Translations under genes and position numbers: made by a program
Shown here: positions 19,265 through 37,329 of the stretch, piece after piece
Layout: each line of letters opens with the position of its first letter
Numbering within the stretch: position 1 is the first letter of the stretch
DNA from: a virus
Length of the DNA stretch: 37,329 nt
Reading direction: 5' to 3' (one strand)
UHGV virus genome: UHGV-0230703
Notes under the pieces: model-generated
Database searches by the model: none
Told to the model about the DNA's origin: nothing
The model's input: only the letters and a program-made list of their open reading frames with translations

Positions 19265-19660
19265 CTATCTAATTCTAAATTCAAGTGTGACAACCGCCCG
19301 CTTTAGCGGTGTATTCGTTGTTGTGTCGTCCATCACTTGAATTCCACTTGCTTGATAATTTAAAGCCCAATAATAGCCTTCTGTGGCTTCTATCAATCTA
19401 GCTTCATTAAAAAGAGCAGATGCCATATTTGACACCTGCTTTCGTTTCTTCTGTAATCCCCAAACGGATAAAACCACAATCACGGACCCTTTAATGTCAG
19501 TTTTATTTACTTCATGGATGGTCTGAGTGTTCTCAAATTCCACAAAGGGATAACCAACATCCTCTAAAGTTTTGTAATCGTATGTTTTATATCCAAGTTT
19601 GTTTTGGGATATTTTAAAAAGTTCATCAAAAATCGACTGATCTCTTGTCTTAATCATCAT
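19265..19660 (-). CDS. tail terminator / tail completion protein (131 aa)
   Basis: gene order connector-adaptor-gp10-like-terminator-major tail. Confidence 0.5.
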
Positions 19661-35316: not shown

Positions 35317-35601
35317 TTAGAACTCAAAGTTTTCTTTCAAAAATCTTTGGAGCTCCGATCGTTCAATTCTGATGTCTAACTTACTCCACTGCTGTGTTTT
35401 TAAGCCTAGGTTTATCCAATGTGTTAATTTGTCATCACCAATGCCTAAAACTTTTTTTACCTCTGATTTGTTTGGATATGGAGGAAGCTCCACTGATTTG
35501 TTCATAAGGCGCAATCGTTCGTCCAACGAATTAAGCACAGCATTCGTAATCTGTGTAGTTAATTCTGAAACTACTAAATTATCTGGAATTGTTATTTGCA
35601 T
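35317..35601 (-). CDS. excisionase-like / MerR-type HTH DNA-binding protein
   Basis: KSEVKKVLGIGDDKLTHWINLGL...IRIERSELQRFLKE pattern; strong RBS AAAGGAG. Confidence 0.5.
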   Translation of the reverse strand: MQITIPDNLVVSELTTQITNAVLNSLDERLRLMNKSVELPPYPNKSEVKKVLGIGDDKLTHWINLGLKTQQWSKLDIRIERSELQRFLKENFEF

Positions 35602-35791
35602 AATTTTTCTCCTTTTCTAATTCTGCTAGCACTGCCTCAATTGGCTTGATTTGTTTATCTGGCTTTCTACGTCCATTCATAATATCCGACATGTAAGCTG
35701 TTGAAATATCAAGCTGTTCAGCTAACCAAGCTTGACTCTTGTCATGCGTAGCTAACGCCACACGTACTTTTAAAATGAAGTCCTGCGACAT
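35579..35791 (-). CDS. Cro-like XRE-family HTH regulator (70 aa)
   Basis: HTH: SQAWLAEQLDISTAYMSDIMNGRRKP. Confidence 0.8.
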   Translation of the reverse strand: MSQDFILKVRVALATHDKSQAWLAEQLDISTAYMSDIMNGRRKPDKQIKPIEAVLAELEKEKNYANNNSR

Positions 35792-35803
35792 AACTAACTC
35801 CTC

Positions 35804-36514
35804 CTAAACATCCATTCTTGTTTGTCTTAATTCGAATTTCGTTACACTAGATGGTTCCCAACTATTAATAAAGTCCATCACCTTTTCGTAGTGTTTGGCT
35901 CTCAGTTGAGTCCGTGCTCCTACACCTGAAATCTTTTTGACTCCACTGTTTATATCTTTGAAAAGTAATCCAATAGTTTTACGATTTGAGCGATTAATTG
36001 AGTAGGCATCCGCTACTTCGTACACTCTTTTATTAATTCGAGAAGAAATAATGCTGTATTCACCTTGTGGTAACGGCTGATTTTCTTTTAAATCGAAAAC
36101 TTCTTGTTCAATGACATCCACTCGTTGATTAGTTTCCTCACTTGCTTCTAAAGCTAGTAGTGCCAATCCTCTTTTTGTAGTTGGAATGGATACTGATTTC
36201 TCTTTTATTGTTTTTTCCATTTCATTGAATGCGTTTATATACTGCAATTTAAATTGCAATGCTTTCTTTCCAGTAAATCCCATAGCAAGCAATGTAAATC
36301 CATCACGATTCATAATTATTTGACGATATTTTTGTTTGTTTTGGGGATGAATATAAGTATCTTCGTAAAATAGGTCTGCATAATTTTGTGCCACCCCTTC
36401 TTTCAGCTCATCGATGGCTTTTAGAACAACTTTATGTTCTTTCCCGAACACCTCCGCTACTTGCAAACTAGTCGTTACTGCTTGTTGATCTTTCATAATT
36501 ACTAAGTTTGTCAT
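35804..36514 (-). CDS. Rha-family phage regulatory protein / antirepressor, first gene of the leftward lytic operon
   Basis: N-terminal Rha domain (LVIMKDQQAVTTSLQVAEVFGKEHKVVLKAI); RBS GGGAGAG. Confidence 0.75.
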   Translation of the reverse strand: MTNLVIMKDQQAVTTSLQVAEVFGKEHKVVLKAIDELKEGVAQNYADLFYEDTYIHPQNKQKYRQIIMNRDGFTLLAMGFTGKKALQFKLQYINAFNEMEKTIKEKSVSIPTTKRGLALLALEASEETNQRVDVIEQEVFDLKENQPLPQGEYSIISSRINKRVYEVADAYSINRSNRKTIGLLFKDINSGVKKISGVGARTQLRAKHYEKVMDFINSWEPSSVTKFELRQTRMDV

Positions 36515-36541
36515 ATGTGTATCTCTCCCTTGTTAAATTCT

Positions 36542-36564
36542 GTAAGCTAATAAAATTAGCTAAT
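36542..36564. promoter_or_regulatory. operator-like site GTAAGCTAAT-aaaa-TTAGCTAAT
   Basis: inverted partner with the same GTAAGCTAAT half at 36699..36721. Confidence 0.45.
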
Positions 36565-36568
36565 TTTG

Positions 36569-36597
36569 TTGACACTTTCTACAAAGTTTTGTAGAAT
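36569..36597 (+). promoter_or_regulatory. rightward consensus promoter TTGACA-17-TAGAAT with palindrome CTACAAAgtTTTGTAG (36579..36594) in the spacer
   Basis: seen directly; points toward cI about 215 bp away. Confidence 0.5.
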
Positions 36598-36698
36598 AAG
36601 TGCATAGTTAAATAAGCGCAGAATTACCCTATAAATTAACATTCTAAGTTTCCCGACCTCGAATTTGTTTACTTTATTAGGTGTCTTTCTTATTGCTT

Positions 36699-36721
36699 GT
36701 TAGCTTATTAAATTAGCTTAC
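36699..36721. promoter_or_regulatory. operator-like site (minus strand GTAAGCTAAT-ttaa-TAAGCTAAC)
   Basis: inverted copy of site 36542..36564. Confidence 0.45.
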
Positions 36722-36727
36722 GAACAT

Positions 36728-36756
36728 ATATTATTATAAAGTTTTGTAGATGTCAA
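36728..36756 (-). promoter_or_regulatory. leftward consensus promoter TTGACA-17-TAATAT with TTTGTAGA / TCTACAAA half-sites around it
   Basis: minus strand; faces the rightward promoter, so the transcripts would overlap by about 150 nt. Confidence 0.5.
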
Positions 36757-36812
36757 CGATTATCTACAAAGTTTTTAAGATATGTTTTAGGCATGATCGG
36801 AGAATCATTATT

Positions 36813-37160
36813 ATGACAACATTTGAGAGAGTAAAAATGTTAGCAGATAAACGCAAAATATCTATTGTCGAATTGGAAGAAAAACTTAATTTTAGTAAAA
36901 ATTCACTTTACGCGTGGAAAAAAAGTAAGCCATCCATTGATAAACTAAATGCAGTTGCTGACTATTTTAATGTCTCAACTGATTATTTGTTAGGACGCAC
37001 AGATGATCCCGACATAGGAGTTGCACCAGAGGAAAGAAAACTAACCGTGGAAGAAGCTTTAGCATCTGTTATGAGTAGCGACGGAAAACCGCTCACCGAT
37101 AATGATAGGGAAATACTATCAGCTATGATTGAAGCATATTTAGAGAAAAAAGATAACTAA
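36813..37160 (+). CDS. XRE-family lysogeny repressor (ImmR/CI-like) without an S24 autopeptidase domain
   Basis: start trimmed to ATG 36813 (RBS GGAGAA); HTH ISIVELEEKLNFSKNSLYAWKKSK; followed by immA. Confidence 0.85.
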   Translation: MTTFERVKMLADKRKISIVELEEKLNFSKNSLYAWKKSKPSIDKLNAVADYFNVSTDYLLGRTDDPDIGVAPEERKLTVEEALASVMSSDGKPLTDNDREILSAMIEAYLEKKDN

Positions 37161-37177
37161 ATAAGTAGGTGAGTCAG

Positions 37178-37329
37178 TTGGACAATCAAATTGAAATGAT
37201 AATTAATGAACTCGGCGTTAAGGTGGAAGAAAAAGAACATCTTGACGCAGATGGTCATTATATCGCATGTATGAATACCATAGTAATAAAAGCTAATTTA
37301 TCTAAGTATAGAAGACAAAGAACCTTATT
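37178..37329 (+). CDS. immA: ImmA/IrrE-family metallopeptidase, N-terminal part (TTG start, RBS AGGTGA; runs off the window end and resumes at nt 1)
   Basis: MDNQIEMIINELGVKVEEKEHLDADGHYIACMNTIVIKANLSKYRRQRTL then in-frame junction to LHELGH at 1..17. Confidence 0.8.
   Translation, partial: MDNQIEMIINELGVKVEEKEHLDADGHYIACMNTIVIKANLSKYRRQRTL

Follow-up and report, generated by a model that had tools for sequence, protein, structure and literature searches.

Two facing promoters in the immunity region of an Enterococcus phage: a probable Gram-positive variant of the 186/P2 convergent-promoter switch

The virus genome UHGV-0230703 (37,329 nucleotides; here called the window) is a complete, circularly permuted phage genome, in which the lysogeny module wraps from the window end to its start. 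Between the leftward gene rha and the rightward gene of a CI-like repressor lies a gap of 298 bp, which is part of the lysis/lysogeny (immunity) control switch of an Enterococcus temperate siphophage. This gap holds two near-consensus promoters pointing towards each other, and comparison with related loci suggests that it is probably a Gram-positive variant of the convergent-promoter switch of coliphages 186 and P2, built on parts of the ImmR/ImmA type. Both promoters, their 17-bp spacers, their fixed positions and a near-constant distance between the predicted starts were kept in more than 130 related loci. They belong to a conserved non-coding scaffold of approx. 250 bp found in phages of Enterococcus, Vagococcus, Streptococcaceae, Listeria, Bacillus clarkii and Psychrobacillus.

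The facing promoters and their conservation

Promoters were called as matches to the sigma-A consensus. The rightward promoter P_right (36569..36597, plus strand; TTGACA-17-TAGAAT) matches the consensus at 11/12 positions and is the predicted promoter of the cI-immA-orf-int operon. The leftward promoter P_left (36756..36728, minus strand; TTGACA-17-TAATAT; 10/12) is predicted to drive the early lytic operon comprising rha, the cro-like gene and downstream genes. Only nine sites with at least 10/12 matches exist on both strands of the 37.3-kb window, and P_right and P_left are two of these. With the usual 7-nt distance from the -10 region, transcription is predicted to start at approx. 36604 from P_right and at approx. 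36721 from P_left. Each predicted mRNA carries a leader of approx. 205-210 nt, and the two leaders are mutually antisense over approx. 118 nt (36604-36721). An earlier interpretation of the letters alone (the sequence-only reading) had proposed this pair of promoters, and all elements it listed were recovered at or within 1 bp of where it had placed them. It had also proposed overlapping transcripts, which agrees with the predicted starts, but the overlap amounts to approx. 118 nt instead of the approx. 150 nt it had estimated.

To determine how far the arrangement is conserved, two sets of relatives were compared. An exact-anchor scan yielded 61 viral contigs and seven species genomes, comprising 52 distinct sequences (anchor set); the species genomes were five Enterococcus genomes (including E. 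ratti, E. dongliensis and E. gallinarum), Vagococcus elongatus and a metagenome-assembled genome of the Streptococcaceae. A second set was fetched via the Cro-like protein in order to avoid the bias of a DNA anchor (Cro set; the best 80 of 434 IMG/VR relatives), and its counts cover the 75 loci with sufficient flank. In the anchor set both promoters reached at least 9/12 with 17-bp spacers and stood at fixed positions in 52/52 distinct sequences. P_right reached at least 9/12 in all 75 loci of the Cro set and P_left in 74, the remaining one scoring 8/12, so that 74/75 loci reached this value at both promoters. The facing layout was present in 75/75 of these loci, and the predicted start-to-start distance was 116-121 nt in 65/75.

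The limits of the most strongly conserved part of the scaffold, a central block of approx. 118 bp (36603..36722), coincide with the two predicted starts, and the block is predicted to be transcribed from both strands. It shows approx. 70% identity among Enterococcus, Listeria, Bacillus and Psychrobacillus phages and is the same across immunity types. The -10 region of P_right ends 7-8 nt short of the block throughout the anchor set. In the heteroimmune phage EH-TP1, both promoters are kept as TTGACA-17-TATATT and the sequence between them is approx. 85% identical to the window. In low-stringency blastn searches, the phiFL1-3 phages of E. faecalis and phages of Listeria showed the non-coding region at approx. 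70% identity; with the Listeria copy as the starting point, it was also traceable in Bacillus clarkii phage BCJA1c, Psychrobacillus phage Spoks and Listeria phage LP-030-2.

No further promoter emerged near either gene. The window contains no rightward promoter-like site of at least 7/12 between P_left and cI (36735-36812), and across relatives the best-match scores for a cI-proximal promoter were distributed as in shuffled sequence. This is consistent with the non-lambda layout that had been proposed. Near rha no leftward promoter-like site above 7/12 was found, and a second leftward promoter would have no room because the site B1 (see below) lies only 27 nt from the rha start codon. A terminator scan of 35700-37329 gave no hit, and nothing terminator-like stands between either promoter and its gene; hence there is no support for a bidirectional terminator or attenuator within the central block. 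Taking together the conservation of the promoters, a cI-proximal signal no better than shuffled sequence and the lack of an intervening terminator, we judge from these sequence comparisons that the face-to-face arrangement is real and functional. A LexA (Cheo) box considered by eye at CGAACATATATTAT (36721-36734) was rejected, as its second half is mismatched and relatives have CGAGATAAATAT or CGGACATAGTAT at this place.

Two classes of sites and their putative binding proteins

Three related 18-bp sequences, termed class-A sites, lie in or next to the promoters. O_A1 (TCTACAAAGTTTTGTAGA; 36578..36595), with 9-bp arms and a 2-bp centre, is located in the P_right spacer and overlaps the first four bases of the -10 region. 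A repeat finder detected O_A2 (ATTATAAAGTTTTGTAGA; 36733..36750) in the P_left spacer and O_A3 (TCTACAAAGTTTTTAAGA; 36763..36780) 7 bp upstream of the P_left -35 region. They are copies of O_A1 with 83% and 89% identity, respectively. O_A1 is symmetric and the best copy, while O_A2 and O_A3 each retain the half site facing the -35 region. The centres are at approx. -17.5 of P_right (O_A1) and at approx. -20.5 and -50.5 of P_left (O_A2 and O_A3), and the start-to-start spacings are 155 and 30 bp. Allowing up to three mismatches on both strands, the window contains five class-A matches, where chance alone would give 0.5. The three switch sites account for four of these, with the first scoring on both strands; the fifth, with three mismatches, is at 19562.

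The sequence of the class-A sites differs between relatives, and their positions are kept. The EH-TP1 promoter spacers carry TTTCTATCCAACTGTCT and CATCTATCCAATTGGCT, as opposed to the CTACAAAG type of the window. The anchor set comprises at least 14 class-A types, and in the Cro set 23 spacer cores were distinguished. Each phage has one type three times: both promoter spacers contain it, and a third copy lies 7-10 bp upstream of the P_left -35 region. Across at least 14 types, the class-A type co-varies with the N-terminal helix-turn-helix of CI. In a natural chimera (L017) combining an EH-TP1-type CI N-terminus with a window-type C-terminus, the operators are of the EH-TP1 type. Since the spacer sequence changes together with the CI helix-turn-helix, the class-A sites are very probably the immunity operators, in line with the shared operators in both promoter spacers that the sequence-only reading had suggested.

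The CI-like repressor is encoded at 36813..37160 (plus strand), preceded by the Shine-Dalgarno sequence GGAGAA (36799-36804). The 115-amino-acid protein has an N-terminal XRE helix-turn-helix; its Pfam domains are HTH_19, HTH_26 and HTH_3 only, and no S24 peptidase domain is present. Its homologue in Enterococcus phage vB_ElaS_B1578 is annotated 'repressor'. Among solved structures, CI is best matched by the ICEBs1 ImmR N-terminal domain (7t8i, E = 1e-4). An ImmA/IrrE metalloprotease gene (immA; PHROG 87, metallo-protease) follows on the same strand at 37178..37329 joined to 1-262; it is split over the window ends because the window is circularly permuted. The joined open reading frame (ORF) encodes 137 amino acids with a HELGH motif and shares 130/138 positions (94%) with the annotated ImmA of vB_ElaS_B1578. 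The earlier description of a repressor without S24 domain accompanied by ImmA thus holds. Downstream of immA are a small ORF (317-628) and the integrase gene (637-1788), so that repressor, ImmA and integrase form a co-oriented module of ICEBs1-type parts.

A second class of sites, termed class B, consists of T(T/A)AGCT(A/T)A units. B1 (GTAAGCTAATAAAATTAGCTAA; 36542..36563) contains two units 13 bp apart, and two units 12-13 bp apart are found in B1 and B2 alike. B2 (TTAGCTTATTAAATTAGCTTAC; 36700..36721) covers +1 to +22 of the predicted leftward transcript, and its distance to the P_left -10 region is fixed at 5-6 nt in all anchor-set relatives. The 22-nt arms B1 and B2 are 86% complementary (19/22). 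A class-B-like half site, B3 (TAGTTAAATAAGC; 36605..36617), spans +2 to +14 of P_right and is 85% complementary to part of B2. The centre of B1 is at approx. -51.5 from the predicted P_right start. No class-B-like sequence was found elsewhere in the window, where 0.03 were expected. The B pair was 150-165 bp apart in 75/75 loci of the Cro set, and a relaxed B3 motif was present in 73/75. The class-B sites are invariant across immunity types. An additional B-like pair in L129-L134 was dismissed as a chance match, since it lies inside a coding ORF of 104 amino acids and has two mismatches per site.

The conserved candidate partner of these sites is the product of the cro-like gene (35579..35791, minus strand), a 70-amino-acid XRE-type helix-turn-helix protein (Pfam HTH_31/HTH_3; PHROG 1468, 'transcriptional repressor'). 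It belongs to a conserved family of 58-70 amino acids in Enterococcus, Listeria, Bacillus and Psychrobacillus phages, in which the recognition helix, (A/P)Y(L/M)SDIxNG(R/K)R, is nearly invariant. Nearly all loci contain the gene, in many of them as the first on the leftward side, which is why we regard it as occupying the functional 'cro' position. Among loci with the Cro helix motif, 62/63 have at least two canonical B units and 50/63 have all four. Where the motif is missing, the B sites are degenerate in 5/6 loci; the sixth (L027) has canonical B sites, and as only approx. 1.7 kb of upstream DNA are available for it, its cro-like gene may lie beyond this sequence. This co-occurrence of invariant sites with a conserved recognition helix points to the Cro-like protein as the likely class-B binder, and the most economical reading is that the class-B sites are its operator set. 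The second operator class of the sequence-only reading can accordingly be recognized in the class-B sites, which appear to track the conserved Cro-like protein. The solved structure that matches the Cro-like family best is a chain named 'DBP48' (PDB 8tac, E = 9e-11), which outranks every chain named phage Cro or repressor.

Proposed function of the switch and competing explanations

According to the convergent-switch model, the P_right transcript would run through the P_left region into cI-immA-orf-int, and the P_left transcript would cross the P_right region and continue into rha, the cro-like gene and the early lytic genes. The ImmR-like CI would bind O_A2 and O_A3 and turn P_left off, while CI at O_A1 would limit its own promoter P_right; looping by CI between O_A1 and O_A2 is possible because these sites are 155 bp apart. 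As long as P_left is active, polymerases from both promoters are expected to collide or occlude each other over the 118-bp overlap, as in coliphage 186. We infer from this layout that there is transcriptional interference between the promoters. Silencing of one promoter would then boost the other and sharpen the choice between lysis and lysogeny. Upon induction ImmA would cleave CI, and the Cro-like protein made from P_left would bind B1/B3 and B2, shut off cI transcription and later damp P_left.

Several observations weigh against this model. Both promoters are known here as consensus matches, and neither for the phage nor for its relatives did we find transcription-start, binding or reporter data in the literature. 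The co-occurrence counts overstate the independence of the loci, because these are phylogenetically related. The distance from B1 to the P_right -35 region ranges from 5 to 35 bp among relatives, so that a precise contact of a B1-bound protein with polymerase at P_right fits poorly. Likewise, the overall B1-to-B2 span of 180-200 bp shows no 10.5-bp helical periodicity among relatives, and helical phasing, as for B1/B2 looping, is therefore not a conserved constraint. One lineage (L052/L068) combines near-canonical B sites with a very different helix-turn-helix protein encoded by the first gene. Finally, the strong conservation of the 118-bp block in sequence and length is left unexplained by the convergent-switch model, and simple interference does not require it.

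In a first alternative, the main role of the class-B sites and of the conserved block would be at the RNA level. A B2:B1 helix would close the lytic leader and stabilize the lytic mRNA or control its translation, and the 5' part of the cI transcript would serve as a cis-antisense RNA, with parallels in pCF10 prgQ/prgX and in plasmid countertranscript systems. The positions of the sites would suit such a role. B2 begins at the predicted P_left start in all anchor-set relatives, the boundaries of the block are the two predicted starts, and B1 is always 17-32 nt upstream of the first start codon, whichever gene this belongs to, just before the ribosome-binding site. In the leftward RNA, B1 and B2 are complementary at 19/22 positions and of equal length (21 or 22) within each phage, and some non-palindromic variants (L013, L038) still retain the inverted relation. 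Folding of the leftward leader, closed by the B1/B2 helix, gave z = -4.4 against shuffles; the single-sequence stabilities were z = -4.4 and -2.4, values which DNA palindromes yield anyway.

The comparative data did not bear out an RNA structure. RNAalifold calculations with 43 sequences and with 23 non-redundant ones revealed no meaningful consensus fold on either strand; the consensus energies (-7.1, -3.7 and -0.8 kcal/mol) are negligible and the covariation term is near 0. Paired cells were as frequent as in shuffles, both for the long-range B2:B1 helix (80.5 versus 80.4%) and for local B hairpins (73.6 versus 73.1%), with both-sided changes in three cells and one cell, respectively. No Rfam family was detected: in 36300-37000, the sole match with E <= 1 was to a snoRNA and is attributed to chance, its 30.7 bits falling short of the gathering score of 55. 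Moreover, palindromic DNA sites provide the same complementarity and z-score for free, and the unit TTAGCTAA is itself palindromic, which is typical of a site bound by a dimer. The only central helix proposed by RNAalifold corresponds to a palindrome at 36641..36664 (CGTT-CCCC/GGGG-AACG in relatives). It comprises three pairs, with a compensatory change at one of them in 12 sequences as weak support, and the hairpin measures only 3-4 bp. As pair counts were no better than in shuffles, an RNA function of the block or of the class-B sites is unsupported, and we consider the RNA explanation unlikely.

The palindrome CGTT-NNNN-AACG is present in most relatives, and its 4-nt centre flips between CCCC and GGGG from lineage to lineage. 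A conserved small ORF in the block was also sought and rejected; only ORFs of 3-6 codons and varying length were found.

Even less probable, in our estimation, is a second alternative, in which only one of the consensus promoters matters in vivo. For example, cI might be expressed from a weak gene-proximal promoter standing back to back with P_left and sharing its -35 region, and P_right might give only a non-coding antisense transcript or stay shut by CI. A few relatives (L043, L052 and L062) in fact have TTGTCA, the P_left -35 region read in reverse, followed by a good -10 region (10/12). In addition, O_A1 as the best operator copy resides in the P_right spacer, and strong repression of P_right is expected in the lysogen. 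Nevertheless, the interval in front of cI in the window is devoid of a rightward site of at least 7/12, the best cI-proximal scores of the relatives resemble those of shuffled sequence and P_right reads on to cI without a terminator in its way. Furthermore, P_right was conserved in every locus with a consensus-like -35 region, a 17-bp spacer and a fixed position.

It is most improbable that the immunity repressor itself binds the class-B palindromes and that the class-A repeats are incidental, as might be supposed from the GenBank record of BCJA1c (L075), which marks the class-B palindromes at 2012-2027 and 2179-2194 as 'protein_bind repressor', and from the fact that these are the most conspicuous inverted repeats of the region, since identical B sites occur in phages with wholly different CI recognition helices, in every group the class-A sequences at the three positions all change along with CI, and unchanging sites cannot encode heteroimmunity, so that the label is unlikely to be right.

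Relation to known switches and genomic surroundings

Coliphages 186 and P2 have facing lytic and lysogenic promoters (pR/pL and Pe/Pc) between divergent gene sets, with transcripts overlapping at their 5' ends. The repressor sits on the lytic promoter, and Apl or Cox uses binding sites distinct from those of the repressor. Callen, Shearwin and Egan, who are cited in PMC11318856, reportedly described promoter interference as part of the 186 switch in 2004. At the sequence level, facing promoters with predicted 5'-overlapping transcripts are found here as well. The two site classes of the window, class A tracking CI and class B the Cro-like protein, may be separate targets of the two regulators. 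The proteins are not homologous: CI is a 115-amino-acid XRE/ImmR-like protein, and the lytic regulator is a small XRE-type helix-turn-helix protein (PHROG 1468), which in contrast to proteins of the Apl/Cox type is not known as an excisionase. Induction presumably proceeds via the ImmA protease and not by Tum or LexA-type routes. The start-to-start distance is approx. 118 bp versus 62 bp in 186. Both promoters come close to the consensus, as opposed to a strong lytic and a weak lysogenic one, and a repressor operator is also located inside the spacer of the repressor's own promoter. Because CI and the lytic regulator are unrelated to their counterparts, the region would work like the 186/P2 family and yet is not a homologous member of it.

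The closest match in parts is ICEBs1 of Bacillus subtilis with its ImmR/ImmA system, which also occurs in phi105-type phages. Common to both are one operon for repressor, ImmA metalloprotease and integrase, and an XRE-type repressor without S24 domain, whose best solved homologue is ImmR itself. A further likeness is that the repressor acts on its own promoter and the opposing one, as predicted here. The ICEBs1 promoters PimmR and Pxis are arranged back to back (PMC11318856). Unlike these, the promoters of the window face each other with a leader overlap of approx. 118 bp, no back-to-back pair stands above background, and an invariant second site class and a cro-like gene are present.

Lactococcal phage TP901-1 has divergent promoters PR and PL in a back-to-back arrangement, and its anti-repressor MOR acts together with CI and not via DNA sites of its own. 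The CI/MOR system resembles the present one in a repressor that lacks an autocleavage domain and represses both promoters (predicted here), and in three related operators, two close and one distant, which permit looping. It differs in promoter orientation, convergent here, and in the first gene, which is rha in the window and variable in relatives. No MOR homologue was seen in the window, although no search was aimed at MOR. Convergent promoters with an antisense overlap of approx. 220 nt and two repressor sites that loop are known from prgQ/prgX of pCF10, a conjugation switch that senses peptide pheromones and is controlled via defined antisense RNAs and a terminator. The likeness lies in the Enterococcus setting and in promoters that converge with a long antisense overlap; here, in contrast, neither a terminator nor a conserved RNA fold was found. 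From lambda CI/Cro, where PRM and PR are back to back and both proteins share their operators, the region differs by convergent promoters, a repressor without S24 domain and two distinct site classes.

A genome paper of 2024 predicted convergent promoters in the ImmR/ImmA prophages phi5 and phi12 of Clostridium clostridioforme LM41 (PMC11318856). The pair is intergenic, and the authors likened it to phage 186 (PMC11318856). The idea of a convergent ImmR/ImmA switch is therefore not unprecedented, as it had been predicted there in silico. That study applied a promoter-prediction program to single genomes and involved no operator analysis, conserved scaffold or cross-genus comparison (PMC11318856), and the likeness to the present scaffold considered here is one of arrangement. 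In the literature on enterococcal phage switches, phiFL1A, BCJA1c and Gram-positive convergent promoters, excepting the BCJA1c genome paper, we found neither experimental work on the scaffold nor a description of its cross-genus conservation and modular operator turnover.

To our knowledge, the dissection of convergent-promoter switches has been confined to coliphages of the P2/186 group. If the convergent-switch model is true, the scaffold would represent a widespread and independent Gram-positive version, composed of unrelated proteins (ImmR/ImmA and an XRE-type Cro), and could be used to test whether lysis/lysogeny decisions in general are designed around transcriptional interference. The family also offers a natural series of at least 20 repressor/operator pairs in one fixed promoter frame, which is of use for studying the evolution of immunity specificity and as a source of orthogonal parts for engineering in Enterococcus, Listeria and Bacillus. 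Should the shared Cro/class-B circuit be able to act in trans, this would be relevant to the cross-induction of prophages in polylysogenic enterococci. More tentatively, and with considerable doubt, the scaffold may be imagined as a switch chassis common to all Bacilli, in which immunity is re-specified only by the two 17-bp spacers, one upstream site and the CI recognition helix, and in which Cro, the class-B sites and the 118-bp zone are universal. In that case the Cro of one phage should shut off the cI gene of a heteroimmune prophage in trans, as a route to cross-induction or anti-immunity, and the central block, invariant in length, would serve not as a spacer but as a functional module for collision or antisense.

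Nearest to the window among the records are two Enterococcus phages, vB_ElaS_B1578, with 95% identity from 36522 on, and EH-TP1, as well as a prophage of Enterococcus ratti; strain DSM 15687 of this species carries a near-identical prophage (L069). A record named 'Acinetobacter phage D2SVT' (PQ554527.1) is collinear with the window across the whole lysogeny module and matches as well as vB_ElaS_B1578; judged by this match, the Acinetobacter host seems to have been mis-assigned, or the record to be a contaminant.

The gene to the left of the switch had been designated ant/cro, but the left neighbour is rha (35804..36514, minus strand), encoding an anti-repressor-like protein with Rha and ORF6C domains (Pfam Phage_pRha, 4e-29, and ORF6C; PHROG 373, anti-repressor). 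A Shine-Dalgarno sequence read from the letters, GGGAGAG (36523..36529, minus strand), lies 8 nt upstream of its ATG at 36514. The gene is the first of the leftward, predicted lytic operon, followed by the cro-like gene in second place and further early genes. Rha had also been counted as part of a non-lambda switch logic. It is indeed the first lytic gene in this phage, but equivalent positions in relatives (L001-L067) revealed a variable slot occupied by the cro-like gene, Rha, a Bro-N/Ant protein or at least five unrelated ORFs of 56-76 amino acids without known function. All first-slot genes begin 17-32 nt from site B1. These comparisons indicate that Rha as first lytic gene is lineage-specific cargo outside the conserved logic, rha having apparently been inserted between the switch and cro in the lineage of the window.

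Beyond the integrase gene, a tandem direct repeat (AAGTATGGTCA, two copies) is located at 2018-2039 of the window, just downstream of int and upstream of an ORF at 2093-2887; it is possibly attP or the regulatory region of a cargo gene. Two promoter-like sites with 11/12 matches, TTGTCA-16-TATAAT and TTGAGA-16-TATAAT, were found on the minus strand at 2508 and 1945 of the window, respectively. Both aim leftward to the end of int, and one of them lies inside the ORF at 2093-2887.

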